Below, piece by piece: positions 101-50,148 of a stretch of DNA of 53,937 nucleotides. The notes beneath the pieces were generated by a model. That model was not told the DNA's origin, searched no databases, and saw only the letters and a program-made list of their open reading frames with translations. Both the position numbers and the translations under genes were made by a program. This DNA comes from Candidatus Scalinduaceae bacterium (GTDB lineage: Bacteria > Planctomycetota > Brocadiia > Brocadiales > Scalinduaceae), in contig JBHICG010000016.1 in the NCBI GenBank assembly GCA_046759445.1, positions 1 to 53,937 on the forward strand, written 5' to 3'. Every line of letters starts with the position of its first letter. Position 1 is the first letter of the stretch.

Positions 101-652
101 TCATTTGCTGTCCTTTTCTTTACGGAATCCAATCCGGCCTTTTGGTTTTTCTGGTTGCTCCAATAACTTCTTTATAGCATCAAAGACAATCTTAAACTGA
201 TAATTATATTTTCTTTCCATAGCTTCAATCTTTTGTTTTAGTTCCTTGTGGGTTAAAATCATTTCTCTGAGTTTAGTAAACGTTCTCATGATTTGGATGT
301 TTACTTGTATGGCTCTTTCGCTATTAAGAACACTTGAAAGCATAGCTACACCTTGTTCTGTGAATGCCATAGGCTTATACCTAAGACCCATTTTATCACC
401 TTTGGAGGTCACAAATTGTGACCTCCAATTTTCAAACTCTTTTGTTGTTAACTCAAACATAAAATCATCAGGAAATCGTTTGGCATTACGTTTTACTGCC
501 TGCTTGAGGGCTTTAGTTTGAACCCCATAAAGCGCAGCCCTGATCGCAGATCAGACATAATCCTTATCAAGAATTACCTTTTTACCTCTGATAAGCAATA
601 TCTTACCTTCTATTGTTTCCTGTGGTATTAGACCGGGTTTTGATTTTTTCAT
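101..652 (-). pseudogene. ORF6N-domain DNA-binding protein, interrupted by an in-frame stop inside a small hairpin insertion
   Basis: ATG at 652 reads MKKSKPGLIPQETIEGKILLIRGKKVILDKD-YV*SAIR-AALYGVQTKALKQAVKRNAKRFPDDFMFELT, continuing in frame into ORF 101..460 (FTEQGVAMLSSVLNS...RIGF, ORF6N signature). TGA at 553-551. Confidence 0.85.
540..560. repeat. 21-bp mini-hairpin element CTGATC-GCA-GATCAG-ACATAA
   Basis: Identical copy at 796-816; related hairpins at about 63-85 and 777-791. Confidence 0.85.
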
Positions 653-1171: not shown

Positions 1172-2098
1172 TTACCACTCTTCAACTTTAAGTAAAAGTT
1201 CGTGGAGCCAAAATCTACCCTTAATTGCTTGATCTGACTCATCGGATCTATGGCGGTGCCTAAGACATAGTTTGAATGTTTCTATGACTGGTTTCTTTGA
1301 ATTTACAACAAATAACCTACTTTGAAAATGAAAAAGATGCTCATACAATTTTTCTGTATAAGGTGGTTTTCCCATCACAAAATTTATATTATGTTTTGGA
1401 ATTAATTCATTAATCCTCAAACAAATTTTTTTAAACAAGTTTTCTATAGAATTGATATCATCCGTTGAATCTACAAGTAATATTGTAATATACGATCTTA
1501 AAAACTCGTCTCTTTTCAAAAGACTAATTATTTCTTTCTCATCAATGTTAGAAGGTTTCTTGGCCTTGCATTCAACATATATTAAGTTATTTTCTGATCT
1601 AGCCAGAACATCGTAATCACCACCATTAGGCGCCTCTACTATATGGACACCCCAATCAGAAGTGCAATAAAATTCCCTCTTGAATATTTCTGAAATATAC
1701 CATTCGAAATTTTCTCCAAATTCGGCTTCTCTTTTTTTTAGTGATAAATTACCATCTTGGTTATTAATAATAGCTCTAATTTCAACCAACTCTTTTAATA
1801 AATTATCTATTTTATCAGTACTCCATTTATCATATAACTCCTCTTTAGTAAACTTTGGTTTACTTGTACATATTTTCTTTAAGATTACCCTATTAGATAC
1901 ATCGTTCATCAATTTATAAAGCCTGTATTCCTGCTCCTCTTCAAAGATATCAATGTTTAACAATAACTTTTTGGAAAGACCTGTCTTATTACTCTTAAAA
2001 GTATAACCTCTCCTAATTAATGTTTTTTCAATGCTTCTATCATCTTCTAATATTCGGTCAAGTATTCTTTCTTTTTCAAGACGTTGAGAAATCTTCAT
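1172..2098 (-). CDS. PD-(D/E)XK-superfamily nuclease with a probable N-terminal winged-helix region
   Basis: FGENFEWY...GGDYDVLARSENNLIYVECK gives the E...D-x-ExK restriction-endonuclease motif; lies directly after hsdS. Confidence 0.7.
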   Translation of the reverse strand: MKISQRLEKERILDRILEDDRSIEKTLIRRGYTFKSNKTGLSKKLLLNIDIFEEEQEYRLYKLMNDVSNRVILKKICTSKPKFTKEELYDKWSTDKIDNLLKELVEIRAIINNQDGNLSLKKREAEFGENFEWYISEIFKREFYCTSDWGVHIVEAPNGGDYDVLARSENNLIYVECKAKKPSNIDEKEIISLLKRDEFLRSYITILLVDSTDDINSIENLFKKICLRINELIPKHNINFVMGKPPYTEKLYEHLFHFQSRLFVVNSKKPVIETFKLCLRHRHRSDESDQAIKGRFWLHELLLKVEEW

Positions 2099-2123: not shown

Positions 2124-3305
2124 CTAACTTACCAATTCTCCCCTGAATGCTTTTTGCATGAGGGAGTTGAAGAGGTTGTTCAGTTCTTTTTCAGATTCGC
2201 GCTGTTTTTCTTTTAGTTTTTCTACTTTTTGGACAAGGTCGGCGAATTTTTGTTGCTCCTTTATTGGAGGAATAGGTATTTCAATTTTAGCGAATTCTTT
2301 TGAACGAATTCCTTTTGCAGTGCTGCCGGTAGTTCTTTTAAAAACTTCACTCTTGATTTTATTAGACATTAAACAATAGACTAAATAGTCAGACATAATA
2401 GATTTCTTATTACATTGAAGCGCTATAATTCTTTGGGCAAGAGCTATTTTCTCCTTAACATTAAGCTTTGCAACATTACCTATAGGAGCTTCTGTAGTAA
2501 AAAGGACATCTCCGTCTTTTGGAAACCCTCTAGTCATCCAAGCTTCATATACTTCTTCTGATATATATTCTTTTGGCTCTTTAGAAATGTATCCTTCTCT
2601 AATATTTTTTGCAGTAATTAAAGGAATGCCTTCTAATGACTTCTGAGGTGTCTTTCCTCTGTAATCGATAAAATTTACAGCATCGCCAATCGCTTTTTTA
2701 TGGCATTCCTTTTTGCCAGATATATAAATATCAAATATTTCCGAAAATGTAGCTTTGAGAAATTCGTCAGTAAGGCGGTTGGCTTCTTTGCGTTTTTCTC
2801 TGGCAGATTCAGCTTTTTCAAGGATAGAGGCGATTTTGCGTTGGATTTTTATAGGTGGAATGGGAACTTTAACATTCGACAAATTGGTAGCATTTACACC
2901 TGGTAAAGTAGTTCCTGATGTTCTTGCTCCTAATTGAGCAAAGAACATATTTGATTTCAAAAAGAAACCTGCATAAAAAGGAATCAATTCTTTTCCTGGA
3001 CGAAAACGAATTAAATATGATGCGAATACTGCCCTTGGAGGAGTTTTAACAACTACAGATACACCAACAGAACCAGCTCTTGAAATTAAAATATCACCAT
3101 CTTTAAGGCGATATCGTTCTTCATCGATTGGAGGTTCTGCACAAAAAGGAACAGATTTCCAACAAATATCCCCATTAGAAATATCAGTTGTCCGAACAAA
3201 AAGTGGTCCTTGTCCATCAGGTTTTGCACTCGTTGTATAGCCGTATTCTGGTTTCTCGCAAACCTCGCTTAATTTTTTCCATTTCCAATCAACTTTTTGT
3301 TTCAT
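2124..3305 (-). CDS. hsdS: Type I restriction-modification specificity subunit
   Basis: Two TRD + conserved-helix repeats (VPIPPIKIQRKIA; IPIPPIKEQQKFA...LMQKAFRGEL); overlaps the end of hsdM. Confidence 0.95.
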   Translation of the reverse strand: MKQKVDWKWKKLSEVCEKPEYGYTTSAKPDGQGPLFVRTTDISNGDICWKSVPFCAEPPIDEERYRLKDGDILISRAGSVGVSVVVKTPPRAVFASYLIRFRPGKELIPFYAGFFLKSNMFFAQLGARTSGTTLPGVNATNLSNVKVPIPPIKIQRKIASILEKAESAREKRKEANRLTDEFLKATFSEIFDIYISGKKECHKKAIGDAVNFIDYRGKTPQKSLEGIPLITAKNIREGYISKEPKEYISEEVYEAWMTRGFPKDGDVLFTTEAPIGNVAKLNVKEKIALAQRIIALQCNKKSIMSDYLVYCLMSNKIKSEVFKRTTGSTAKGIRSKEFAKIEIPIPPIKEQQKFADLVQKVEKLKEKQRESEKELNNLFNSLMQKAFRGELVS

Positions 3306-4806
3306 TTTTAATTCTCTTTACATCTTTAATGATTTCATCCTCTATTGCCAAAAGTTCTTTCATTATCACTTCTGGCTTTTCATACTCCATTTCTTCATAC
3401 TCTATTGGCTTGTAGCGAGAAATGGATAGATCATAGTTATTATTTTTTATCTCATTATAATCAACCCACAGCCATTTATCTCCTTTTTTGGGTTGTTTGT
3501 TCTTATCTCTGTTTTTCCATTTTTCAATAATATCAGGTATGTCGTTCTGTTCGATTTTTGTACGCTTGTCGTCAAGGGAGTAACCGTCTGCCTCCATATT
3601 ATAGAACCAGACATTATCTGTCTTTTCTCCCTTGGTAAATACAAGTACTGCTGTTGATACACCCGCATAAGGTTTAAATACACCCGAAGGCATAGAGATA
3701 ACGGCTTCAAGTCCGCAATTGTCTAAGATAAGTTTTCGCGCATCAATGTGCGCATTGCTTGAACCAAAGAGAACGCCATCAGGTACAATTACACCACATC
3801 TTCCGCCGGGGATCAGCATGTTTACAAAAAGGTTTATGAATAGTAATTCTGTCTTGGGTTTTTTGCTCGATCCTGTAACGGTTAAGTCTTCGGCAACATC
3901 GGTCTTATCAACATTCCCCTTAAAAGGAGGATTGGCAAGGACAATATCATAGAGGTTTCTTTCTTTAAATCCCTTGGAGAGTGTATCGGCGTATCGTATT
4001 TTTGGATTTGCAATACCGTGTAAGACCATATTCATGAGACCAATTCGAACCATGGTGGTGTCAAAGTCATAACCGAAGAAAGATTTCTCCCAAAGAAATT
4101 TCCAGTGTTTTTTGTCAACTATCCTATCCGCAGTTAGATTATGTGGAGCGCCGTCTTCATCGTACGTAATATTTTCCGGGTCGGTATTTTCTTTCAGGAT
4201 ATGATTAAAAGAGCCAATCAAGAAACCGCTTGTGCCGCAGGCAGGATCGCAAATCCTGTTGCCTAATTTCGGGTCGACAAGTTCAACAATCATCCTGATG
4301 ATATGGCGGGGAGTGCGGAATTGCCCGTTCTTGCCTGACTGAGATATTTCACTCAACAGGTATTCATAGATATCTCCCTGGAGGTCAATGCCTTTTGAGG
4401 AAAGGTTTATCTCATCAAGTATCTTTACTGCCTCCTGAATAAGTGATGGTTTGGGGATAAGAAAGACGGCGTCCTTCATAGACTCGGAATAAAAATTATT
4501 TTCACCACTTAATTCTTTTATAAAGGTAAATACAATATCACGGACATGATTTAACATGGTTTCAGCATCAAAGTGCATCCAGTGTGACCAACGGCAGGTT
4601 TCTTTACCTTTGAATATTGAAGTATATTTCTGCTTTCTTCTTTCTGACGCCTTTCTCTGCTGGTTGTCCATATCTTCGAGACGTTTCATAAAGATGAGGT
4701 ATGAAATTTGTTCGATTGCGGAAAGGGGATTGGACATACCTCCGGAGTAAAACATATCCCAGAGTTTATCGATCTTGCTTTTTATTTCTGGATAAGCATT
4801 AAGCAT
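3289..4806 (-). CDS. hsdM: Type I restriction-modification N6-adenine methyltransferase
   Basis: GQFRTPRHII, motif I DPACGTSGFL, motif IV NPPF, VPDGVLF. Confidence 0.97.
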   Translation of the reverse strand: MLNAYPEIKSKIDKLWDMFYSGGMSNPLSAIEQISYLIFMKRLEDMDNQQRKASERRKQKYTSIFKGKETCRWSHWMHFDAETMLNHVRDIVFTFIKELSGENNFYSESMKDAVFLIPKPSLIQEAVKILDEINLSSKGIDLQGDIYEYLLSEISQSGKNGQFRTPRHIIRMIVELVDPKLGNRICDPACGTSGFLIGSFNHILKENTDPENITYDEDGAPHNLTADRIVDKKHWKFLWEKSFFGYDFDTTMVRIGLMNMVLHGIANPKIRYADTLSKGFKERNLYDIVLANPPFKGNVDKTDVAEDLTVTGSSKKPKTELLFINLFVNMLIPGGRCGVIVPDGVLFGSSNAHIDARKLILDNCGLEAVISMPSGVFKPYAGVSTAVLVFTKGEKTDNVWFYNMEADGYSLDDKRTKIEQNDIPDIIEKWKNRDKNKQPKKGDKWLWVDYNEIKNNNYDLSISRYKPIEYEEMEYEKPEVIMKELLAIEDEIIKDVKRIKNETKS

Positions 4807-4896
4807 AGAATTTAGCTCCTAACGTCGCTAACTTCTTGATTTTGCTTTGCAAAATAACATTTACTAAAATCTCTATGAAATATTTTTATTTTTTGG

Positions 4897-5456
4897 GCCT
4901 CCCCTTTATCCCCTCCTTGCGAAGGAGGATCGAAAAACTTTCATTTTACGACCTCCCCTTTGTCCCCTCCTTGAGAAGGAGGGGATTTAGGGGTGGTCTT
5001 TATAATTATATCTTGTATAACACCTTCTATGTTCTTTAGAATATCATTATTTGTATATCTTAATACTTTAATCCCTAAGGCTTCTATTACCTTCTGTCTT
5101 TGACTATCAGAAATAATCCGAGAATTATAGTAATGAACTCCACCATCGATTTCGACTGCCAATTTCAGTTCAGGACAATAAAAATCAACTGTGTAATTAT
5201 TAATCCCATATTGCCTTCTAAATTTTAAACCATTAATTTGTTTGCCCTTTAATTTTGCCCAAAGGTATATTTCCGCTTTTGTCATATTCTTTCGTAAATG
5301 ACGCCTTCTCTTTGTATATTCTCTTTTATTGAATATCTCTGTCATATTTGAAAGTCCTTATCTTACCTCCCCGTTCCCCTCCTTTACAAGGAGGGGATAA
5401 AGAGGTGGTATAGAAATAACATCCTACCGACTTCCTCCTTCGCAAGGAGGGGAGAC
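4897..5456. repeat. Four CCCCTCCTT-N3-AAGGAGGGG palindromes bracketing the first DUF559 gene
   Basis: Hairpins at about 4910-4929, 4963-4985, 5375-5397 and 5432-5453. Confidence 0.85.
4941..5345 (-). CDS. DUF559 / Vsr-like endonuclease
   Basis: LRKNMTKAEIYLW...KFRRQY...VDFYCPELKLAVEIDGGVH...LRYTNNDI. The C-terminus PKSPPSQGGDKGEV is encoded by the palindrome. Confidence 0.9.
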   Translation of the reverse strand: MTEIFNKREYTKRRRHLRKNMTKAEIYLWAKLKGKQINGLKFRRQYGINNYTVDFYCPELKLAVEIDGGVHYYNSRIISDSQRQKVIEALGIKVLRYTNNDILKNIEGVIQDIIIKTTPKSPPSQGGDKGEVVK

Positions 5457-5624
5457 CATTTTGCTTACGGCGTTATAGCACCTGAATGTATGTAGTGATA
5501 AGCCCATCAAGATGGAGGAGGTTACGTATTATAGTTTGTTTCCACAAAATATCCTGAATGACCACATTAAAATACCTATCCCTGTAATATTGTACTTACT
5601 TTTACTTACTTTTCCGCACTTATT

Positions 5625-5745
5625 AAGTAGGTAATATAATTGTGATATTACCTACATTAAACATAATTATACCTACTTATTTGATGTCTGTCAAGTAGGT
5701 ATTATAGAATTAATATTACCCACTTTACAGTTCTATTACCTACTT
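5625..5745. repeat. Six copies of AAGTAGGTAAT(AT) in both orientations (candidate operator array)
   Basis: Copies at 5625-5637 (+), 5645-5655 (-), 5669-5678 (-), 5693-5702 (+), 5713-5725 (-), 5734-5745 (-). Confidence 0.8.
5666..5694 (-). promoter_or_regulatory. Perfect-consensus sigma-70 promoter pointing towards DUF559-hsdM-hsdS
   Basis: Minus strand TTGACA-gacatcaaataagtagg (17 nt)-TATAAT. Confidence 0.8.
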
Positions 5746-6783
5746 TTTTTTAGCCCATACAGCACCCCTTCCCATGCTCGTGGAATGGATTATGCCGGCA
5801 TCGCGAAGCTCTCTTAAAATCTTCCTTATCATGTCTCTGCTTACGTCAGGGCAAATCCTCTCTATGTCGCTTATAGAGAAAGGCTTAACAAAGGTTTTTA
5901 TAGCTGATTTAACCTGTTCTGTCTTATAGCCTTTTCCCTTAAAGCGACCTACCCTTGTCTCAAACTCTTTATATGCGGCAATAAGAGTCCCATGAAAATA
6001 ATCTAACCACGGGAAAATATCGTGCCTTCCTTCATGCCATTTTTTGGAGGAAACTGCTAATGCATCATAATAACTGGATTTTGAATCTTCTGTTATCTTC
6101 TCCAGGCTGATATATTTTCCAACCTTATATCCCACCTGATACAAGAGTAATAATGTTAAAAGCCTTGAAATTCTTCCATTGCCATCAATAAAGGGATGAA
6201 TACTTGAAAAATCAAACACAAAAAGAGGGATAAGGATAAGAGGGTCAAATGATTCTTTAATTAAATAAGTTTTATATAAAGAAATCAATCTCTTCATATA
6301 AGAAGGAGTATCTTTTGCCGGTACGGGTTTAAATCTGAGAATTTTTTTGCCGCCGGGCATTACGTCCACGATTTCGTTATCTATTTTCTTCCAGAAACCT
6401 GATTTTACAGTTGTGTACCGATAAAGCATGGAGTGAAATTGTAAAACAACGTTTTCTGATAAAGGAATATCTTCATGGGATTGGTGAATGAGGTTTAAGA
6501 CGTCTCTATAACCGGCAATCTCCTGTTCTGGTCTGTTGCGGGGTGTTGCATTTGCCTTAACAATCATCTCAATTCTTTTATGAGGCGCTTTAACTCCTTC
6601 TATCCTGTTTGAAGATTCCGTGCTCTGAACTATAGCGCTTTCAAGCAGTTTCTCGAGGACATCAGGTGATTGCTTGTTATATAATTCTTCCTTACCCTTA
6701 TATTCTCCAATGGCTCGTAGGTTTGATAATACTTCATGTGGAAACCTTAATTTATTTAAATATTTTTTCTCAAATGATTTCAT
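5740..6783 (-). CDS. Fic-domain protein (AMPylase) with C-terminal winged helix
   Basis: Canonical HPFIDGNGRISR; N-terminal inhibitory SNRIEG motif; C-terminal SISDIERICPDVSRDMIRKILRELRDAG. Confidence 0.93.
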   Translation of the reverse strand: MKSFEKKYLNKLRFPHEVLSNLRAIGEYKGKEELYNKQSPDVLEKLLESAIVQSTESSNRIEGVKAPHKRIEMIVKANATPRNRPEQEIAGYRDVLNLIHQSHEDIPLSENVVLQFHSMLYRYTTVKSGFWKKIDNEIVDVMPGGKKILRFKPVPAKDTPSYMKRLISLYKTYLIKESFDPLILIPLFVFDFSSIHPFIDGNGRISRLLTLLLLYQVGYKVGKYISLEKITEDSKSSYYDALAVSSKKWHEGRHDIFPWLDYFHGTLIAAYKEFETRVGRFKGKGYKTEQVKSAIKTFVKPFSISDIERICPDVSRDMIRKILRELRDAGIIHSTSMGRGAVWAKKK

Positions 6784-6855
6784 TGTGTTTCTTTGTGCAG
6801 ACCGTTGGAAATCCCCGTTAGGTAATTAAGGCTTGGACTTTCTCGTAAAAAATTC

Positions 6856-7416
6856 CACACACCTCTAATTCTCCTCTTGATAGAGGAGACTTGCTTATCT
6901 CCCATCTAAAAAGAGGGGATCAAGGGGGGTGTATTATCTTTTTTTCATGATCTTCAATAAACAATTGAATTGCCTGTAAAACTCCTTCCGGATTTTCCAT
7001 AACATCCTCATCTCTGAATCTCAATACCGTTATCCCAAATTTCTTTAACCTTTCTTGTTTCAATTCATCCTTTTCTACAATTTCTTCAAATGTGTGGGTA
7101 TAGCCGTCCAACTCAATAGCAAGTTTTAATTTATTACAGAAAAAATCTACGATAGAGTTATCAATTGGTTTTTGCCGATGAAAATCATACCCCATCATTT
7201 TCTTGCCTTTTAAGCATTGCCATAGTTTTATTTCTGATTTCGTACTATTATTTCTCAATTTTCGTGCAAGTTCTTTGAGTCTTGGATGGTAATTTATCTT
7301 CATGGTATTTTTTTTACACACCCCCTCACCCCTCTTTTTAGAGGGGAGAAATACAGATAACCCATCTTGGTAGAGGGAGAAAAACACCCCTTTTATCCCC
7401 TCTTTCTAGAGGGGAA
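6856..7416. repeat. Five CCCCTCT-N4/5-AGAGGGG palindromes bracketing the second DUF559 gene
   Basis: Hairpins at about 6870-6889, 6900-6919, 7329-7346, 7361-7378 and 7396-7415, most with ACACCCC or GGGGTGT flanks. Confidence 0.85.
6920..7303 (-). CDS. DUF559 / Vsr-like endonuclease
   Basis: Start moved to ATG 7303 (MKINYHPRLKELARKLRNNSTKSEIKLW...FHRQKPI...VDFFC...IELDG); the ORF-track extension upstream is palindrome-derived. Confidence 0.9.
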   Translation of the reverse strand: MKINYHPRLKELARKLRNNSTKSEIKLWQCLKGKKMMGYDFHRQKPIDNSIVDFFCNKLKLAIELDGYTHTFEEIVEKDELKQERLKKFGITVLRFRDEDVMENPEGVLQAIQLFIEDHEKKIIHPP

Positions 7417-7429
7417 AATATGCACCAAC

Positions 7430-10228
7430 TTATGCTGCAATCTTATTATAAATATCTATAATTTCCTGCAATTCTTCTTCTGAAAAGAGTCTTGTAGCTG
7501 CGTCTGCTCCGAACTGTGTAAATGGTGGTTCAAATAAATCTGTATATTCTATTTGCTTCTTTTGAGCAAATACATTTTTTACTGTCCTTAAAAATCTTAT
7601 TTGCTCTGCGGAAAGTGGGTTTTTATTATTTCTTTCTACAACATAAGTTTGAAAAGACTCATTAATTAATTCTTTAGCATCAGGAAATTTATACTTTCCC
7701 AATATACTCTTTAGAAACTGAATAAGTGTGCCGTACGGCTGTAGAAATGCTTTACGCAGATTGTCCTCACTTATATATAACTCAGGGCTATTGAGTGTAT
7801 CTTCCAGATCGGCTAGATCTTTATCCGTAATAGGGATATCATCCTTTATCTTCTGTAAAGCAGGGTGAGTTTCTGCCATATCCAAAACCTTCTTTTCAAT
7901 CTTTTCTATGTAGTTTGCCACATAATCACCTTCACCTTCCGGACCAAATTCAATCCATTTTCTTTCAACAACTAAGTCATCCAGGTCTAACGTTACCATT
8001 TCTCTGCCCTCGGGTAACTTGTACTTCATGATTTCAGTTAGATTATCCTTCATATACTCACACTTTTCATAATCAAGATCATACCAGAATTCTTCTGATA
8101 GAACTTTATTAATATGTTCTTCTTTTTCCTTAATTACACTTAAGTTTCTGGGAAGGCGTTTTATATCATCAATAATAGACTCTTTGATTCGTTTTATTTC
8201 CTCTTGATTGGTTTGCAACAGAGAAAGACCAAGTTTTTCCACCTTAAGCATAAACTGGGTTTGATAAAGATTAAGGTCACTTCTAAAACGCATAAGAGGG
8301 GCTATCTTTTTGTCCAAAAACTCTAATGATTTTTTATCAAGATCCTGCCAAACAGAATCAGAAAGTGCTTTGTCTATATTTCGTCTATTTTCTTTCACTG
8401 TAATGGAATTTCCAGGTAGGTTTTTTATATCATTAATGATTTCTGTCTTTACCTTTTCGAACCTTTGTAAATCTTTGTTTTCTTGAAAAAGCTTTAATTT
8501 GGCCAACCGTATCTTGAAAATTTTCACTGGAACAGCATCTTGCACTGGTGGGGCCTCTCCCTCCGGTTTCTCACCAAAGTATTCAAAGTTATTCCAATGG
8601 TCTATAATGAGGAATTTATCTTTGTAAGTACACCATGGTTTCCTGTTTGAGATGTCCTTTTCCAGAGTGCGTGTGCCACGGCCAATCATCTGCCAGAATT
8701 TAATCTTACTAAATACAGGTTTGGCAAAAACAAGATTGACAACCTCATGTATATCCACACCCGTATCTAACATATCCACAGATATGGCAATTCTTGGGAA
8801 GTTTTCATTTTTGAACTTATCTATGAGCTTCAGTGGTCTTTCCATCTTAGAATCTATAATTTCTACCAGACGTCCTTTATACTCAGGATATAATCTATTA
8901 AAAACCTCCCAAAGCCTTTTTGCGTGATTGTGTGAAATAGCGAAGATGATGGATTTACCTGGAAGGACTCCAGAATCGTCCTTAATACAAACATCCATAA
9001 ATTCCCTGGCCAGAGATTCATTAGTACCGATATTTGTAACTTTCTTCTCTAAATCTGTTCCTTCAAAATTTATATCTTCGAGAGTCAATCCTTCTTCAAC
9101 AAGTTTCTTTTGAATGCTTGGCGGCAATTCATTTCCCTTGATACCCTTTATCTGGAAATTTGTTTGAGCGGCGTATGGAGGTCTGAAATCAACTAAATGA
9201 TGTTCTTTGACTGCGCTATCATAAGCATAATTATAAGTAGGTACGTTTTCATCACAACCAAAGAATTTAAATGTATCTCTTTCGATATAGTCAGAGGGTG
9301 TTGCTGTAAGTCCGATTTGAATGGCGTGAAAATAACTTAATACGTCTCTCCATTTATTGTAAATTGAACGATGACACTCATCAGAGATTATAATGTCAAA
9401 GAAACCTGGAGATACTTTATGAAAACACTCCATCATTGTCTGTATCGTTGCAACAAAAAGGCGGGATGATGAATCTATTTCACCAGCTTTTATATAACTT
9501 CGTGATTCATTTGGAAGATGTTGTTTGAAACCATCACGATAAGCTTGGATTGCCAATGCCTCTCTATCTACTAAAAAAAGCACTTTTTGTACCCAACCTG
9601 CACGCATAAGGACATCAATTAAGGCCATAGCAGTTCTTGTCTTTCCTGTTCCTGTTGCCATAACTAAAAGAAATTTTCTTCTGTTTTTTATAAGACGATC
9701 AAAGACATGCTTTATTGCCTCTATCTGGTAATCTCTATCCACAATTGTAGGTTTTATGGTAACAGAATGCAGGTCTTTTCTAAATTCGTTCTGGTGTCGA
9801 ATGCGCTCCAGGTCATGTCTTGTAAAGAAATCGTGGATCATAGCTGGAGCATAACGCTGTCTATTCCAATACCACATTTCATATCCATTTGTAAGGAAGA
9901 TAAACGGATCAAATCCTGTTATTTTCTTTATACCATCTGCATAATCTTCAGCCTGTTGTTTACCTACCACTGGGTCACGGGATGTACGTTTTGCCTCTAT
10001 AACAGCTAGTGGATCTCCAGCCCTGTCAAGTAAAAGATAATCTGAAAACCCTGAAGGATTAAAATCTGGACGATTTTGAGCACTTGTAGGACGAGAAATA
10101 CCTGTTCCCGTTATTTCGAATTCTTCTATTACTTCCGAATGGTCATTTAAATGCCAGCCAGCTTTTTCCAGTAAGCCATCAATAATCTTTTTGCGAGTTT
10201 GATTTTCTGATAAATTTTCGTTTAACAT
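7430..10228 (-). CDS. hsdR: Type I restriction endonuclease subunit R (EcoEI/EcoAI-like C-terminus)
   Basis: Nuclease motif SDYLLLD...VIEAK, Walker A ATGTGKT, DECH, QMIGRGTR, C-terminal LFEPPFTQFG. Confidence 0.95.
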   Translation of the reverse strand: MLNENLSENQTRKKIIDGLLEKAGWHLNDHSEVIEEFEITGTGISRPTSAQNRPDFNPSGFSDYLLLDRAGDPLAVIEAKRTSRDPVVGKQQAEDYADGIKKITGFDPFIFLTNGYEMWYWNRQRYAPAMIHDFFTRHDLERIRHQNEFRKDLHSVTIKPTIVDRDYQIEAIKHVFDRLIKNRRKFLLVMATGTGKTRTAMALIDVLMRAGWVQKVLFLVDREALAIQAYRDGFKQHLPNESRSYIKAGEIDSSSRLFVATIQTMMECFHKVSPGFFDIIISDECHRSIYNKWRDVLSYFHAIQIGLTATPSDYIERDTFKFFGCDENVPTYNYAYDSAVKEHHLVDFRPPYAAQTNFQIKGIKGNELPPSIQKKLVEEGLTLEDINFEGTDLEKKVTNIGTNESLAREFMDVCIKDDSGVLPGKSIIFAISHNHAKRLWEVFNRLYPEYKGRLVEIIDSKMERPLKLIDKFKNENFPRIAISVDMLDTGVDIHEVVNLVFAKPVFSKIKFWQMIGRGTRTLEKDISNRKPWCTYKDKFLIIDHWNNFEYFGEKPEGEAPPVQDAVPVKIFKIRLAKLKLFQENKDLQRFEKVKTEIINDIKNLPGNSITVKENRRNIDKALSDSVWQDLDKKSLEFLDKKIAPLMRFRSDLNLYQTQFMLKVEKLGLSLLQTNQEEIKRIKESIIDDIKRLPRNLSVIKEKEEHINKVLSEEFWYDLDYEKCEYMKDNLTEIMKYKLPEGREMVTLDLDDLVVERKWIEFGPEGEGDYVANYIEKIEKKVLDMAETHPALQKIKDDIPITDKDLADLEDTLNSPELYISEDNLRKAFLQPYGTLIQFLKSILGKYKFPDAKELINESFQTYVVERNNKNPLSAEQIRFLRTVKNVFAQKKQIEYTDLFEPPFTQFGADAATRLFSEEELQEIIDIYNKIAA

Positions 10229-12453: not shown

Positions 12454-12561
12454 TGCTAACGAAAAGGCTGAACTACGGCGGGGATAAAGGAGACTTGGTG
12501 AGTCTCTAAAAACAAAATAGCACACAGAGTGTACGCCGTTAGCTCCAGCCGCTTGTTATCT
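12454..12561 (-). other. Integron attC site
   Basis: Minus strand AGATAAC-AAGC-GGCTGGAGCTAACGGCG...CGCCGTAGTTCAGCC-TTTTC-GTTAGCA. The arms pair with two unpaired extra bases; it directly follows the vapC stop. Confidence 0.88.
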
Positions 12562-12563
12562 TA

Positions 12564-12929
12564 TTATTTCTTATCAAAACCCAAAGCAAGTTTTTTAGAT
12601 ATTTCATTAAGTTTTTTGTCAAGCGTCCAGATAGGGACTCTTGTCAATACTGCTGAAGCAAGCAAGTGGATGTCAATATATCCTAATCCTTTTCCCATCA
12701 ATCGATTATTCTCTATGAAAAGCAAAACTTCTTCATGTTCTGCTTGGATTGCCATAGGTAGCGTTTGAAGAAGTGAAAGTATCTCATATCTGTTCTTGAG
12801 ATGCCCACAAGCCAACTCGCCAACAATGAAAGGATGACAAATAACATAGCCATTATTCAATAAGTTTATGAGCTTGGCATTGCCTTCTCGAAAGTGGAAT
12901 ACCCACACTGATGTGTCAACAAGAAGCAT
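12564..12929 (-). CDS. vapC: PIN-domain toxin
   Basis: LVDTSVW...IVGELACG...IDIHLLASA...WTLDKKL. Confidence 0.93.
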   Translation of the reverse strand: MLLVDTSVWVFHFREGNAKLINLLNNGYVICHPFIVGELACGHLKNRYEILSLLQTLPMAIQAEHEEVLLFIENNRLMGKGLGYIDIHLLASAVLTRVPIWTLDKKLNEISKKLALGFDKK

Positions 12930-12930
12930 C

Positions 12931-13128
12931 TTATAGGTTTCCTGTTTTTCTCCTGGGTATCATCGTCAATTTCTTCTCAGTACCCCCCAATTTAGCAAGT
13001 CTCTTGCTACTCTCCATTGCAATCAGGGCTTCCAATCCCAATTTGACAAGAGCTGTTTTTTCCTTAACACCGGTCAATTTTGATGCCTTTTCAATCAACT
13101 TATCTTCTATATTTAATGTTGTTCTCAT
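12931..13128 (-). CDS. vapB: VapB-family antitoxin
   Basis: MRTTLNIEDKLIEKA...EKTALVKLGLEALIA; 65 aa, 1 bp upstream of vapC. Confidence 0.92.
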   Translation of the reverse strand: MRTTLNIEDKLIEKASKLTGVKEKTALVKLGLEALIAMESSKRLAKLGGTEKKLTMIPRRKTGNL

Positions 13129-20818: not shown

Positions 20819-21249
20819 ACCTAAATTTAGCAATTTTTTCTAGAATAAATGCAACCTCCCCTTTATCCCCTTCTTAATAATCAGGAGAAGATATTTGAGT
20901 AGGTGTGGTTTTTATAACACTCAATAAATGATATAAATTTATAAGTAGCTGCTGTATTAAATCCTCATGATCATCTGAGTCACAGCAAATTATGAAAACA
21001 TGTCCTGGAGAAAGTCAGGATTAGATTCCTTTTTGTTTGCCACGTGGGCAATACCATGGAAATGACAGAAAATACAACACATTAGTCATTGGCAATTCCT
21101 CATCAAGGAATTTGCTTAGGTGATTATGCCTGTCCTTCAGACAGGTAGGTAGAATCACACCACAACCCCAGCCCAATGGGCCTGATCTATTATTTTTCGA
21201 ATCAAAAAAATATAGCACTATTGAACTTAAAAAATAGCTTGGTTTAGGT
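20819..21249. mobile_element. MITE-like element, ACCTAAAT-type TIR family (431 bp)
   Basis: ACCTAAATTTAGCAATTTT ... AAAATAGCTTGGTTTAGGT, flanked by TAT on both sides. Confidence 0.65.
21070..21190. ncRNA. Candidate structured RNA motif, copy A (family unknown)
   Basis: Shares AAATACAA, GTCATTGGCAATTCC, TTGCTTAGGTGA and CCACAAC blocks and hairpins with 51133-51240. Confidence 0.4.
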
Positions 21250-34254: not shown

Positions 34255-34995
34255 AATAAAGGGGACAGGCTACTTTTTAACATATTTTCCCTTCTTCTTT
34301 CTCGGCCTTCCCCGTGGTCTTATAGAAGATTCCAATCCAAGTTCTCTACTAATCTGTTTTTGCCACTTACAATTTCCATAGGGTGATTGACGATTAACAC
34401 TCTGACGAAATTTCTCTAACTCCTTTTCTGTAACTGATTCATCTACATATCTATCCCATCCATCTGGTAACTCTAAGGAAACTTCATCTACTAATAATCG
34501 TGGCCGTTTACCTATTATCTCTCCATGGGATGACCATGGCCAATCCTCTGCCGACTTTACCAATCCAGCTCTTACTGGATTTCCTTCAACATATCTTAAC
34601 ACCATTAATAAATGAATATCTCCTGTATAATAAAGCTTTTAAATCGCCCCTGCCATACATGACCACTAGTTCCATAATATCTATGATAGCGTCTAACACG
34701 GCTTGTCATCAACCATTGCATCCATTTACTCAAATCTCCAGCTTGAGCAGGCATTAAAATTACGTGAAAATGATTCGGCATTAAACAATAGGCAAGTAAC
34801 TTTAGAGAATATTGCTTTTTTGCCTCTTTCATTAAACCAAAAAACGCTTCATAATCTTTATCTTCATGAAAGACACTCTGCTTGCCGTTCCCACGATTTA
34901 ACACGTGATACACAAGACCGTCAGATAAACCTCTCGGAATTCTTGGCATCTTTAGCACCTTTACCAGCAAAAAGTAGCCTGTTGTCCTCTTTATT
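34255..34995 (-). mobile_element. RAYT element with inverted ends
   Basis: Left end AATAAAGGGGACAGGCTACTTTTT; right end AAAAAGTAGCCTGT(TGT)CCTCTTTATT. Confidence 0.8.
34270..34949 (-). pseudogene. REP-associated tyrosine transposase (Y1 HUH), frameshifted
   Basis: MPRIPRG...YHVLNRGN...YCLMPNHFH...HVWQGRFKS, then a 1-bp deletion near 34620; the second frame continues DIHLLMVLRYVEGNPVRAG...WSS. Confidence 0.88.
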
Positions 34996-36639
34996 TTCAA
35001 AGGAAGACAAAGCCCTCTCGAAATGTTCGATTAGTTTCTCATTTATATTCTTAGATAACGAATCGTCTTCATCATAAAAACATGAATTTTGTTCTCTTTT
35101 AAAATCTCTATCTTTCGACAAACCTTCTAATACTTCAAGACAAAAAGACCTTATACTTTCTGCAAAATCAGCAACTCTCTCATCTTTAAAATTACAAATA
35201 TACTCATAATTTAGCCTAGACACTGATTTAGCAAGGCTTTTCCTCTTCTGATAATCAGGCGTACCTTTGAATATCGTTTGTCTATGATGTAAGAGATGTG
35301 CGGTAACGCTCGGCACCCTTAACATCTTCATCTCCTTAAGAAACTCATAATTACCTCTCACATCTTCCAAAGTAGAATATGGCTCAAACATGATGAAACC
35401 ATAATTCGGCTCTATGCCATACTTCCTTAGTATATTTATTGCCTTTTTATTATCCTCAACAGTTGTAAACTTCTTGAATCTATTCAGAGAACTATTGTTT
35501 CCACTTTCAATTCCCAGAAAAACATCATTAAGTCCCGCCTCAACAAGTTTGCCAATCGATGCGTCTTCTATATCGTTAACCCTGCATTCAATTCCGAAAT
35601 TTATCTTTAAGTCTTTGCCCTTAATCAAACGTGCTATCTCACACGCACGTTCTTTGCCTTTCTTACCAGGTCCAAAAAAATTAGCATCTGCAAAATAAAA
35701 ATATCTTTCTCCATAATCTTCACAAAGATAATAAAGTTCATCAACAATATTTTCAGGACTTCTCCCACGCCAATATGATGTTTCTCCATAAAATTGATCA
35801 AGATAACAAAATGTACATTCTCCATAACACCCCCTGCTTGCAAGTATATAAGTGGCAATACCCTTTTGTTTTAATAGCTTAAAGTCATGACGATAAGGGA
35901 ATGGAAGTTCATCAAGTTTTGAAATGGGCTTTCTCGGTTTGTTCTGTATTACGTCAGTTTTAAGGACATCTTCTTCTATCTTACTATTGAGAATACCATG
36001 TTTTTCTAATGAATATTTCTCTATCTCCCCCTCTAATACACGCGAACAAATCCCCTTTAATCCCCCCTCCCCCCCTTTAGTAAAGGGGGGATGCATGGAG
36101 GATTTTACAAAGGCGGAAAGAGGTAGATTAGTATTACTATGAGAGGTCTTGAATGCAAGACCATCAATTGTGTATAAAGTAGAAGTATCTTTTTTGTTTA
36201 TTACTGCTTTTGCAAGCTTAAGGAACGTAATCTCTGGTTCTCCTACTGTAATAGAATCAACAAAAGGATATTTTGATAAAATCTCTCTAAATGCAAACGT
36301 AGGAAAATGCCCGTAAAGATTTGTGTGAACATTAACACAATTTCTACGTATGTTCAGGAGCATTTTAAATATGTCCTCAGTATCTTCCCAGAGATACACA
36401 AGATGAACGCCTAACACATTAAAGCTTTTCTCTTTTAGCTCCTGTACGGTTTTATGAAAAGACCATTCATAAAGATTTGCATCAACAATTTCTACATCAA
36501 GATTTTTCGACTTAAGTACAGAAGCAATGTAATCTGTCATTAGGCATGACGAGAGTGGAGTGTTCACGACATCCTGAAGCTTTTTAGGGTTTATGTGCCT
36601 CGGGTGTTCTAGTAAAATGATTCTGGTGTTGTTTTTCAT
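34921..36639 (-). CDS. Cobalamin-binding radical SAM protein (BzaD/BzaE-like by context)
   Basis: N-terminal B12-binding-like domain (GHFPTF, GEPE), SRGCYGECTFC, DANFF, GIESG. Has an in-frame palindrome insert and a RAYT-derived C-terminal tail. Confidence 0.85.
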   Translation of the reverse strand: MKNNTRIILLEHPRHINPKKLQDVVNTPLSSCLMTDYIASVLKSKNLDVEIVDANLYEWSFHKTVQELKEKSFNVLGVHLVYLWEDTEDIFKMLLNIRRNCVNVHTNLYGHFPTFAFREILSKYPFVDSITVGEPEITFLKLAKAVINKKDTSTLYTIDGLAFKTSHSNTNLPLSAFVKSSMHPPFTKGGEGGLKGICSRVLEGEIEKYSLEKHGILNSKIEEDVLKTDVIQNKPRKPISKLDELPFPYRHDFKLLKQKGIATYILASRGCYGECTFCYLDQFYGETSYWRGRSPENIVDELYYLCEDYGERYFYFADANFFGPGKKGKERACEIARLIKGKDLKINFGIECRVNDIEDASIGKLVEAGLNDVFLGIESGNNSSLNRFKKFTTVEDNKKAINILRKYGIEPNYGFIMFEPYSTLEDVRGNYEFLKEMKMLRVPSVTAHLLHHRQTIFKGTPDYQKRKSLAKSVSRLNYEYICNFKDERVADFAESIRSFCLEVLEGLSKDRDFKREQNSCFYDEDDSLSKNINEKLIEHFERALSSFENKEDNRLLFAGKGAKDAKNSERFI

Positions 36640-41630: not shown

Positions 41631-41814
41631 GTTTCAGAATCCCCCTTTGGAAAAGGGGGAAATTTGTTTATTTGGGGGTCTGACCCCTTGTTATACTTCT
41701 AACTTCTTGCCTTTTGCATCTTGCTTCTGCTGGTTCAATCATGTTGATTGAGTGCTATTCGTAAGAATAGCCTTAAATATTTCGGTTCAGACTACAAGCC
41801 TGAACCAGCCGAAA

Positions 41815-42999: not shown

Positions 43000-43295
43000 A
43001 ACGCAAGGCTAAAGCCTCGCCCTACATTCCTGTCTGGGCAAGCACAGCAGATAGGTTTTTCCAACTCGTTCAAGTTAAGCTGTCTTTGGCAGCGACTTTC
43101 ATGCTCCCCTCTAAAAAGAGGGGCTGGGGGGGGTGTATAGCCCTTCTTATGGAAGGGACGGCATATCTACACACCCTTACCTGTCGGCAGACAGGCCTTA
43201 ATCCCCCCACTGCTTTCTTGCTTCATCCCTGTTCTTGCTTTCGCAAGAAAGCACAGGGAGAACAGCAAGAAGTGGGGGGAAACTATGATTGAAAT
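43000..43295. repeat. Cluster of GTAG-type half-REP and CCCCTCT/GGGG palindromes with nested insertions
   Basis: GCAAGGCTAAAGCCTCGCCCTAC; CCCCTCTAAAAAGAGGGG; CCTGTCGGCAGACAGG; TCCCCCCAC...GTGGGGGGA enclosing nested TTCTTGC hairpins. Confidence 0.75.
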
Positions 43296-50030: not shown

Positions 50031-50148
50031 ACCTAAATTGAGTGATTTTCCCCTCCCCTGGCCCCTTCCATCAGGTGAGAGATATTTTTCAGTTTCCCTC
50101 CCCATCGATGGGGGAGGTTTAGGGTGGGGGTAATTTCACTCAATAGGT
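50031..50148. mobile_element. MITE-like element (ACCTAAAT TIR) carrying CCCTCCCC-type palindromes
   Basis: ACCTAAATTGAGTGATTTT ... AATTTCACTCAATAGGT; contains CCTCCCCATCGATGGGGGAGG. No clean TSD. Confidence 0.65.

Follow-up and report, generated by a model that had tools for sequence, protein, structure and literature searches.

Why should two small genes of one domain family, set within a single restriction-modification operon, each lie among palindromes of its own kind? The DUF559 domain is widespread among bacteria and its function is unknown; in E. coli a single gene, ycjD, bears it. The window, 53,937 nt of DNA from a Candidatus Scalinduaceae bacterium, holds two such genes between hsdM (3289-4806, minus strand) and hsdR (7430-10228, minus strand). 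A preliminary analysis of the letters alone (the sequence-only reading) had proposed that each nuclease recognises and spreads its own palindromes, in the manner of REP/RAYT systems run by a different enzyme.

Two nuclease genes and the hairpins around them

DUF559 #1 (clade B; 4941..5345, minus strand; 134 aa) and DUF559 #2 (clade C; 6920..7303, minus strand; 127 aa from the ATG at 7303) are separated by a Fic gene (5740-6783, minus strand). Against a PF04480 cut-off of 20.6 bits they score 110 (E 6.9e-32) and 109 (E 1.3e-31), and they match the NCBIfam DUF559 model at E 1e-19 and 9e-18, under its equivalog cut-off. The open reading frame of the second gene spans 6920-7387 (minus strand); the ATG at 7303 is its likely start, and a start at the GTG at 7387 would add 28 repeat-encoded residues. 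A profile search matched neither gene to the Y1 transposase families, and PADLOC gave weak matches only, to a type II methyl-directed restriction enzyme and DpdF for DUF559 #1 and to a homing endonuclease model (E 8e-5) for DUF559 #2.

What kind of enzyme might these genes encode? DUF559 #1 matches PDB 3hrl in sequence (E 1.5e-17), and its AlphaFold2 model (pLDDT 86.3) matches the folds of 3hrl (E 2.8e-6), 3r3p (E 7.8e-5) and 1vsr (E 0.017). The nearest solved folds are 3hrl, a DUF559 protein, and the homing endonuclease I-Bth0305I (3r3p), at TM 0.68-0.75, with Vsr more distant; as far as the model can tell, the closest characterised fold is thus that of a Vsr-like (EDxHD) homing endonuclease. 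Residues D45, E56 and H62 are invariant and D58 is at least 90% conserved across 12 diverse copies. By its modelled structure, DUF559 #1 has a Vsr-type fold; with DUF559 #2 it belongs to the Vsr-like branch of the PD-(D/E)XK superfamily, and we predict that both are nucleases. Where synonymous change is unsaturated, dN/dS is 0.04-0.26, indicating purifying selection.

Each gene is framed by its own set of hairpins. Family 1 surrounds DUF559 #1: a complete two-sided triplex-hairpin unit with a perfect 10-bp stem (4963-4985) lies at the 3' end of the cassette (4950..4998), where it supplies the last ~17 codons of the gene and folds as DNA at -19.1 kcal/mol (z -6.3), and another with a perfect 10-bp stem (5375-5397) lies at the 5' end (5363..5409), 35 nt of it showing 86% complementarity to 4951-4985. 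Both of these units carry the mirror block described below on both sides. Further out are a partial unit with a pyrimidine outer block and a 7-bp-stem hairpin at 4912-4928 (4898..4931), and a hairpin with a 7-bp core at 5434-5450 (5433..5453), which is 100% complementary over 21 nt to 4909-4929. The two hairpins per side that the sequence-only reading had described for this gene are therefore present.

That reading had also listed five CCCCTCT-type hairpins at DUF559 #2; there are five, of which one has a variant stem and two are imperfect. The 3' end of cassette 2 carries a unit at 6897..6931 (plus strand), with one mismatch in its hairpin (6900-6918) and 95% complementarity to 7329-7349, whose third block (6923-6931) supplies the last ~4 codons of the gene; both C-termini are repeat-encoded, as the sequence-only reading had noted. 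At the 5' end (7316..7346, minus strand) a gene-adjoining third block (7316-7324) precedes a perfect hairpin (7329-7346), followed at 7358..7415 (minus strand) by a degenerate hairpin (7361-7378) and a further family-2 unit (7384-7415, with a perfect hairpin at 7396-7415). The variant unit (6860..6889, minus strand) has a perfect stem, TCTCCTCT, at 6870-6889 and its own matching third block, mirrored at 8/8 positions. The reported 'ACACCCC flanks' exist, but they are part of the unit, being its third block read on the other strand.

Counting only Watson-Crick pairs, the window units fold at -4.9 to -19.1 kcal/mol (z -2.1 to -6.3), and the sole Rfam match, to a miRNA, was at the level of chance (27.6 bits, with a gathering score of 200). 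In the source genome (3.62 Mb, 37% GC), where a hairpin was counted if its homopyrimidine stem was at least 6 long, 14 of 85 homopyrimidine hairpins are no more than 150 bp from one of the six DUF559 loci, against 0.09 expected (binomial 5e-27), and every one of the six loci has at least one; the possibility that the palindromes are no commoner near DUF559 than elsewhere did not hold. Reversed hairpin patterns gave 0 matches in all 41 genomes that we compared. Both DUF559 genes of the window are bracketed by homopyrimidine-stem hairpins, far beyond chance.

Could the hairpins serve only the expression of the DUF559 genes or the operon, for instance as terminators, attenuators or stabilisers of RNA? 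They do sit at gene ends, and the one at 6870-6889 fits a terminator-like pattern, but a single terminator-like site compares with 2.2 in shuffles, and a mirrored third block would have no role in an RNA hairpin. Units also lie in frame within open reading frames (10 of 38 third-block-bearing orphans), and earlier work cited in the available part of PMC4666352 found PIT elements to have neither promoter nor terminator activity. We give this reading very little credence. A sigma-70-type consensus promoter matching at 12/12 positions (5666..5694, minus strand) is directed at cassette 1 and hsdM, and in relatives without cassette 1 it stands 55 nt from the hsdM start. Relatives of both cassettes are covered by contigs of an RNA library, a coverage that does not prove transcription.

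A triplex-type repeat and the cassette built from it

To our knowledge, BoxC/PIT/TM repeats have been known since the 1990s without a function, an origin or a partner gene. In the repeats described here, a loop joins a pyrimidine arm to a purine arm, and beyond a short gap stands a G/T(A) block that is the mirror of the purine arm. Under the rule tested for this third block (G opposite G; A or T opposite A), a mirrored block of at least 6 nt occurs on at least one side of 51 of the 85 hairpins, against 1.6% per side for random flanks. Because the third block mirrors the purine arm, the window units can be classed, as judged from sequence, as variants of the BoxC/PIT/TM intrastrand-triplex repeats, not as TM(ECO) proper. 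The sequence-only reading had missed that the palindromes belong to a known class (Holder et al. 2015, PMC4666352). Its members, BoxC/PIT/TM(ECO), have the same build according to the available text of that paper, with 3-7 nt of loop between pyrimidine and purine arms and a G-rich mirror block after a short gap, and are likewise dispersed, often as inverted pairs. The differences are that stems here are 6-10 nt long and more A/T-rich, in at least five families; that many units have a mirror block on both sides; and that some lie inside genes, whereas the same text reports K-12 copies as always intergenic. The E. coli TM consensus (CCCTCNCCC ... GGGNGAGGG ... GGGNGAGGG) is not matched by the window's two families, which have other stems; a family on contig C2 (CCCTCTCCCC with GGGTGAGGGG) is a near-match and is alone in coming close.

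How general is the arrangement? The comparison set comprised 44 DUF559 loci from the 41 related genomes, kin of one order; loci L023-L030 and L048 stayed outside it, as did 21 PF04480 rows that were weak or partial. At the 44 loci the order is hairpin and third block, gene, third block and hairpin, with inverted ends, in a cassette of about 0.45-0.6 kb. Mirroring of 80% or more of the hairpin's own purine arm occurs in the gene-side flank at 64 of 78 gene-proximal hairpins and in the outer flank at 9 of 78. A swap of third blocks against foreign arms did not discriminate: among 78 cases the own arm won 26, tied 29 and lost 23, since a short G-rich arm will match any run of G. Seven clade-B cassettes, from at least four different gene contexts, show likeness only between the left hairpin's outer edge and a point just beyond the right hairpin, and their alignment showed no shared direct repeat outside the hairpins. 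Clade-A cassettes have different stems at their two ends, each with its own mirrored third block. With its inverted ends, common borders and mirrored gene-side blocks, the cassette behaves as the single gene-plus-repeat module that had been proposed.

The repeat type follows the protein. Twelve stem labels require 12 changes on the tree of the 44 loci (the minimum is 11), against 23-30 in 500 shuffles, so palindrome type tracks DUF559 clade, in line with the private palindrome families proposed by the sequence-only reading, although co-descent of a gene with its flanks could by itself produce such a match. Within clade B, where synonymous differences are 35-85% per site, the same 10-bp stem is kept in 12 of 14 gene-proximal hairpins while the loops vary. 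The source genome has six DUF559 loci and five repeat families, each clade with its own family, and in 5/5 families the cassette ends match orphan repeats of that genome.

In what setting do the cassettes lie? The upstream neighbour is co-directional at 36 of 38 intergenic loci, six further loci lie in frame within hsdR or hsdM, and of 30 loci scored, 25 have an open reading frame that enters or crosses the repeat on the right. PF04480 matches are patchy, found in 30 of 41 genomes with up to nine, partly broken, in one genome. A host-serving enzyme, either a Vsr-like repair or structure-specific nuclease that deals with lesions or stalled forks at triplex-forming repeats or an accessory of restriction-modification, would suit the 11 of 44 loci in or beside restriction-modification genes and the long duration of purifying selection. 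Caulobacter VsrA, of the same fold superfamily and with a DUF559 domain, damages DNA in vivo; in cells that lack a cytosine methylase it sets off an SOS response, and it has been proposed to act as a mismatch nuclease (Matthey et al. 2026, PMC12907096, in its accessible part). Vsr and VsrA differ, however, in acting at T:G mismatches tied to cytosine methylation, and they are single housekeeping-type genes for which that part of the paper reports no flanking repeats. No cytosine methylase adjoins the cassette DUF559 copies, the methylases beside them being of N6-adenine or N6/N4 type; broken extra copies, patchy presence and in-frame sites in unrelated genes form the pattern of a selfish element, and the same operon works in relatives that lack either cassette. 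We consider a host-serving role quite improbable.

Insertion, turnover and repeats without a nuclease

Did the two cassettes arrive together? In metagenome contigs from three studies, only 55 nt separate 4806 from 5666, and cassette 1 is missing; contigs of run X5, which lack cassette 2, pass from 6782 to 7431 and from 6795 to 7434. The cassette 2 joints have short sides (30-33 nt) on contigs at 85% likeness or more. One related operon, that of G005, is without cassette 1 and retains only a remnant of cassette 2, shortened by deletion between two TTATCCC words. Since cassette 1 is missing from the operon of relatives, and in some of them cassette 2 is missing too or reduced to a remnant, the two represent separate insertions. 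This agrees with the two landings in the hsdR-hsdM interval envisaged by the sequence-only reading, which had suggested searching relatives for empty junctions; joints were found for the site of each cassette. Elsewhere, hsdR of G028 is empty where six relatives' hsdR carries a cassette, and the flanks of relatives' cassettes adjoin one another in the source genome on C25 (about 773-803), C5 (48345-48463) and C48 (9238-9437). Neither an exact empty site at base resolution nor a target duplication was found, as the intergenic spacers of relatives are too diverged.

The copies themselves are old. The source genome's two clade-A copies differ at about half of synonymous sites, the copy on C45 is syntenic with that of G001, and accordingly no recent movement was seen. 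Decay is evident too, with in-frame stops in 5 of 44 DUF559 copies and a broken copy on contig C58.

Repeats also occur far from any nuclease. The sequence-only reading had noted orphan relatives at five places in the window; four can be assigned to families, and the repeat at 20855 is only a decayed family-1-like unit. An orphan of the CCCCCTTT family (36051..36100, minus strand; hairpin 36070-36090) lies in frame within an open reading frame at 34921-36639, whose product, named from its sequence, is a putative B12-binding radical-SAM-like protein, and a second hairpin of this family, without a third block, is at 41640-41660. The orphan assigned earlier to family 2 proved to be so: its hairpin (43106-43123) opens a gene-less doublet (43106..43190, plus strand) that continues with a third block, a small inner hairpin and a complementary third block. 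The units at 50048..50135 (plus strand; hairpin 50097-50117) belong to the family that flanks clade-A DUF559 genes on contigs C25 and C45. Orphan copies greatly exceed DUF559 genes in number. Gene-less family-2 doublets are not merely empty cassettes, since they have a spacer of their own and, in G030, the opposite polarity, with third blocks outside. Further contig joints, 6933 to 7329 and 6934 to 7311, represent gene-less doublets, with sides of 20-29 nt and a source that is possibly orphan doublets elsewhere.

In REP/RAYT systems, a single-copy enzyme gene stands between inverted cognate palindromes, which are also dispersed as singlets and doublets in families that track the enzyme clade; the enzyme is an HUH Y1 tyrosine transposase, and the repeat populations are reported to depend on the resident enzyme gene. 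By analogy, the DUF559 nuclease would multiply its own repeat family in trans, with orphans and doublets as non-autonomous products and the cassette as the autonomous element. The likeness is real: inverted cognate repeats stand on both sides of the gene, singlets and doublets are scattered elsewhere, the family is clade-specific, and a clade-D gene is present in 5 of 8 CCCCCTTT-rich genomes (at least 13 copies) and in 0 of 33 genomes with four copies or fewer. Yet repeat abundance needs no resident nuclease, since four DUF559-free assemblies hold 9-135 perfect copies: G030 has 135 family-C hairpins, G032 has 40 of family D and 11 of family C, and G008 and G016 have 10 and 9 of family B, and in all four (93-98% complete) PF04480 found no DUF559 and neither did a local profile, even at E<=1. 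In the source genome, moreover, the most abundant family (20 exact-pattern copies) has only a broken gene. The repeats differ from REPs in their triplex-type third block, the cassettes can lie in frame inside genes, and the enzyme is of Vsr fold (PF04480) rather than an HUH Y1 transposase; as a matter of general knowledge, a hydrolytic Vsr-fold nuclease, unlike HUH enzymes, has no known route to joining DNA. Of the REP/RAYT features, the layout and the tracking of enzyme clade by repeat family are present here; a Y1 transposase and a repeat population that depends on the resident enzyme are not. We judge a RAYT-like mechanism unlikely.

If repeats thrive without the gene, might the gene be a passenger? 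Under this alternative, other means move or maintain the repeats, a trapped DUF559 gene rides along, and the match of clade to family reflects shared descent only. In its favour, the cassettes are old and often syntenic, and no mobility genes are reported near E. coli TM repeats in the accessible part of Holder et al. (PMC4666352). Against it, purifying selection on the gene is strong and has preserved the catalytic residues, the cassette ends match orphans of the source genome for each of its five families, and 44/44 loci carry the same kind of small nuclease, with a predicted homing-endonuclease-like fold. Passive carriage is, in our view, distinctly unlikely.

A proposed homing cassette and its neighbours among known systems

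The explanation that we favour, at somewhat less than even confidence, is a selfish nuclease cassette of the homing type, resident in the repeat that its enzyme would recognise. Each DUF559 gene would be the cargo of a small selfish element whose ends are inverted copies of one BoxC/TM-type family, each end a homopyrimidine-homopurine hairpin with a gene-side G/T(A) block; because that block mirrors the purine arm, an intrastrand triplex could fold from a single strand. The cargo would be a Vsr-fold nuclease of homing-endonuclease type, without a promoter of its own and often without its own stop codon, expressed through an upstream host gene or in frame inside one. The nuclease may read both the sequence and the fold of its own repeat family, and may nick or cut copies that lack the gene, whereupon host recombinational repair would copy the gene in from an occupied copy, the repeat providing the homology as in homing. 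The repeats would be the older layer, persisting and multiplying without the nuclease, and their occurrence without the gene in related genomes fits a role as target rather than product. Long-lasting purifying selection at fixed sites is unexpected for a pure homing element, and counts against this explanation.

Known homing systems offer both parallels and contrasts. Free-standing small nuclease genes inside other genes are described for the Vsr-like endonucleases of 'fractured gene' loci (Dassa et al. 2009, PMC2677866, available text), and filled and empty alleles of one site are seen here (4806 to 5666, 6782 to 7431, G005 and the hsdR of G028). The window copies are instead intergenic within an operon, not in an intron, intein or split host gene; their flanks are a dispersed repeat family rather than a unique host target; and the Dassa endonucleases, in that same text, bear extra DNA-binding modules that are absent from the cassette DUF559 proteins. 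MITEs and mobile insertion cassettes resemble these elements in their short length (about 0.45-0.6 kb), terminal inverted repeats, gene-less miniatures and many intergenic sites, but the ends of the cassettes are themselves palindromes with a triplex-type block, and no target-site duplication was seen. We know of no transposase family for ends of this type.

A specific pairing of DUF559 with the repeats gives both a testable role, and would explain the frequent odd in-frame insertions in restriction-modification genes as well as the repeat-encoded tails and fused open reading frames of DUF559 annotations. It would also set an element made of a nuclease and a structured repeat beside REP/RAYT and the classical homing endonucleases, and nucleases that read a folded DNA triplex would be new structure-specific reagents.

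More broadly, and as a conjecture that we hold only tentatively and on balance doubt, DUF559 nucleases may be the missing partner enzymes of BoxC/PIT/TM repeats, each clade reading the sequence and folded triplex-hairpin of its own family, in a widespread selfish element that uses a hydrolytic Vsr-fold nuclease and not a transposase. Such an element could live within genes, hsdR for example, by in-frame read-through, and would offer an explanation for the instability of the genome that has been reported near TM repeats. Our literature search found no paper linking DUF559 with BoxC/PIT/TM repeats, and the available text of PMC4666352 names no partner gene, has 0 occurrences of 'nuclease' and reports that no transposase or integrase remnants were found. 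E. coli K-12 was our sole comparison for other phyla, outside the 41 genomes; there, TM number 9 (Table 1 of PMC4666352, in its accessible part) lies 168 nt from the DUF559 gene ycjD.

DUF559 genes and their private repeat families

DUF559 (PF04480) nuclease genes and private families of hairpin repeats form gene-plus-repeat modules, as our analysis confirmed. The source assembly (3.62 Mb, 37% GC, 145 contigs, the window being contig C16) contains six DUF559 loci, one of them disrupted by a frameshift and a TAA, and hairpins adjoin every one. Across the whole genome we counted 85 homopyrimidine hairpins (stem of 6 or more), of which 14 are found no more than 150 bp from a DUF559 locus against 0.09 expected, in line with the association reported in an earlier sequence-only reading. 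Five repeat families accompany the six genes, and orphan units of each family, away from any DUF559 gene, occur elsewhere in the genome. The frameshifted gene and its repeats (locus L065, source genome contig C58, 3408-3846) sit between the genes for the flavoprotein and iron-sulfur subunits of succinate dehydrogenase/fumarate reductase; their family is the genome's most abundant, with 20 exact-pattern copies.

A PF04480 search of 41 related genomes of one order gave matches in 30 (66 rows); 44 strong loci were analyzed, with 21 weak or partial rows left out. Their layout is nearly universal: hairpin, third block (a G/T(A) block mirroring the purine arm), gene, complementary third block, hairpin, so the ends are inverted and the third blocks face the gene. 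Mirroring of at least 80% of the hairpin's own arm was seen in the gene-side flank of 64 of 78 gene-proximal hairpins and in the outer flank of 9 of 78.

A protein tree of the 39 stop-free copies resolves into well-supported clades, on which the stem label (12 kinds) changes 12 times, where the minimum is 11 and 500 shuffles gave 23-30. Repeat family thus tracks DUF559 clade among these related genomes. The same match would also arise if the gene were inherited jointly with its flanks, the sampled genomes being kin. The seven cassettes of the DUF559 #1 clade (clade B) lie among at least four sets of neighbor genes, and they resemble one another only between the left hairpin's outer edge and a point slightly past the right hairpin. 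These seven members have CCCCTCCTT-family ends, 2 of the 14 proximal hairpins being variant or imperfect; the four members of the DUF559 #2 clade (clade C), one a pseudogene, have CCCCTCT ends. One clade has unlike stems at its two ends, each with its own mirrored block.

Anatomy of the repeat unit and its copies inside genes

Every hairpin previously reported at the two window genes was found in the sequence: at DUF559 #1, inner hairpins with 10-bp stems (4963-4985, 5375-5397) and outer ones with 7-bp cores (4912-4928, 5434-5450), and at DUF559 #2, five hairpins (6870-6889, 6900-6918, 7329-7346, 7361-7378, 7396-7415). The "ACACCCC flanks" ascribed to family 2, the repeats of DUF559 #2, also exist, but rather than being separate flanks they are the third block read on the opposite strand. 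In a unit, a loop of 3-7 nt separates an arm made only of pyrimidines from its complement made only of purines; after a few bases comes the third block, which is the purine arm written backwards with G opposite G and T or A opposite A. A third block of at least 6 nt is present on at least one side of 51 of the 85 hairpins (random flanks, 1.6% per side). The mirror rule is true within each family: the A/T positions of the third block follow those of A in the arm, and the variant stem at 6870-6889 is paired with its own matching third block. DNA folding of the window units, covering the hairpin part only, gave -4.9 to -19.1 kcal/mol (z -2.1 to -6.3).

Judged by sequence, the window units are constructed like the BoxC/PIT/TM "intrastrand triplex" repeats: the consensus and Table 1 of Holder et al. 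2015 (PMC4666352) display the identical three-block order, and stable triplex formation in vitro is reported there for the E. coli unit.

In-frame readthrough inside restriction-modification genes occurs at six of the 44 loci, five in a type I hsdR just ahead of helicase motif I (one now split into two ORFs) and the remaining one in an hsdM. The hsdR spot is occupied in six relatives by two different DUF559 clades, and the ortholog in G028, another related genome, is uninterrupted. Altogether 11 of 44 loci lie in or beside restriction-modification systems, including the window's two and three beside N6/N4 methylases. Of the 38 orphans in the source genome that have a third block, 10 are located within ORFs at least 150 aa long. 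Stop codons are impossible in pure purine or pure pyrimidine arms, which fits units living inside genes. One such ORF in the window, B12-binding radical-SAM-like (34921-36639, minus strand), has an in-frame unit at about 36051-36100, around residues HPPFTKGGEGGLKG. Another case, the hsdR of the related genome G027 (L005), holds a DUF559 cassette plus two lone in-frame units, around SPLPLGEVGRG and PSPLHPSPSGRGNAGEG, both missing from the G018 ortholog.

Two separate insertions in the hsdM-hsdR interval

The window's operon runs on the minus strand through hsdR (7430-10228), DUF559 #2 (6920-7303, or to 7387 if an upstream GTG is the start), a Fic gene (5740-6783; SoFic defence model of PADLOC, E 1.6e-38), DUF559 #1 (4941-5345), hsdM (3289-4806) and hsdS (2124-3305). 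Both DUF559 genes match PF04480 at E about 1e-31. Cassette 2 (DUF559 #2 with its repeats) lies after the hsdR stop and before the Fic start; a perfect consensus promoter ahead of hsdM at 5694-5666 (minus strand) places cassette 1 within the hsdM leader, between promoter and start codon. Both cassettes point in the direction of the operon, and in the wider sample the upstream neighbor is co-directional at 36 of 38 intergenic loci. The observation that each gene's C-terminus is encoded by its repeat generalizes, since 25 of the 30 loci scored have an ORF that enters or crosses the right-hand repeat.

Did the two modules arrive together? G005, of the same family and a different genus, has a matching operon (nucleotide identity 89% for hsdM, 87-92% for Fic, 93% for hsdR). 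There the hsdM-Fic interval is 428 bp of unrelated sequence lacking cassette 1, and cassette 2 is a remnant, the equivalent of window positions about 7045-7390 having been deleted between two TTATCCC words. Among Logan metagenome contigs (likeness at least 85%; 4 of 12 listed runs), three runs, each of a different study, lead from 4806 to 5666 across 55 other letters, without cassette 1. Contigs of one run lack cassette 2, passing from 6782 to 7431 across 11 letters and also from 6795 to 7434, weaker evidence as the sides span only 30-33 nt. Cassette-free joints of this operon thus exist, and the two modules entered separately, as had been proposed.

The G005 hsdM leader (G005:C54, between hsdM and Fic; L049/L054) holds, at the position of cassette 1 in the window, another dispersed hairpin repeat, of GGGAATGACA / TGTCATTCCC words, also seen in other intergenic spacers (L003; L001; source genome C48, about 12540-13050). 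The Fic gene within this type I restriction-modification operon is kept in the G005 copy. The hsdM promoter has a copy of a near-palindrome of 31-35 nt on either side (5625-5659, 5693-5727) and several short TACCTAC words nearby, and 5594-5760 looks like an operator-controlled promoter for the methylase and specificity genes. Directly downstream of hsdS is a 308-aa ORF (1172-2098, minus strand) without a Pfam match, and an ORF6N-domain fragment (101-460, minus strand) lies at the window's start.

The nuclease and the spread of the repeats

Within clades, dN/dS is 0.04-0.26 (pairs with unsaturated synonymous change). Clade B copies differ at 35-85% per synonymous site, and an identical 10-bp stem is kept in 12 of their 14 gene-proximal hairpins, the loops being variable. 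In-frame stops occur in 5 of 44 copies. Across 12 diverse copies, D45, E56 and H62 never vary and D58 hardly does. The AlphaFold2 model of DUF559 #1 (pLDDT 86.3) has 3hrl, a functionally uncharacterized DUF559 protein, as its nearest fold; next comes the homing endonuclease I-Bth0305I (3r3p; TM 0.68-0.75, 24% identity), with hydroxymethylcytosine-specific restriction enzymes and Vsr more distant. Vsr-like homing endonucleases are treated by Dassa et al. 2009 (PMC2677866), and a Caulobacter DUF559-domain protein is reported to cause DNA damage in vivo (Matthey et al. 2026, PMC12907096).

Does the nuclease make the repeats, or exploit them? Exact-stem counts of three families in the 41 genomes show that gene-bearing genomes nearly always have extra copies of the gene's own family; for the CCCCCTTT family, the clade-D gene occurs in 5 of 8 repeat-rich genomes versus 0 of 33 poor ones. 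Repeats also persist without a resident nuclease, because four repeat-bearing assemblies, 93-98% complete, gave no PF04480 match and none with a local-copy profile at E<=1: G030 (135 family-C hairpins), G032 (40 family-D and 11 family-C), G008 (10 family-B) and G016 (9 family-B). Recent gene loss or an assembly gap may account for these absences; on the counts, the repeats apparently multiply without a resident nuclease, which we read as favoring a gene homing into repeats over a nuclease making them. Of the REP/RAYT-like interpretation, the gene-repeat modules, private families and separate landings stand, but gene-less genomes holding 9-135 repeats count against it. We prefer, at a shade under an even chance, to read the module as a putative homing-type selfish nuclease cassette resident in its cognate triplex-type repeat. 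The family-C copies of G030 (L058, G030:C24 21400-23500) are doublets of about 115 nt with third blocks outside and an extra small hairpin.

We found no paper linking DUF559 to BoxC/PIT/TM-type repeats in the literature searched, which did not cover subscription journals. Holder et al. 2015 (PMC4666352) state that transposase/integrase remnants were never found near TM sites, and "nuclease" and "endonuclease" are absent from their main text. In E. coli K-12, number 9 of the TM sites in their Table 1 is found 168 nt downstream of the DUF559 gene ycjD, whose end overlaps a degenerate unit. Between that unit and TM number 9 is a second partial copy of the last ~50 nt of ycjD (L057, NC_000913.3 1351040-1351840), a duplication suggesting that the end of the cassette was once rearranged. 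Milman et al. 2023 (PMC9881135) list "DUF559 domain-containing protein" as enriched among predicted targets of programmed inversion (odds ratio 14.3), an enrichment that flanking inverted repeats would explain.
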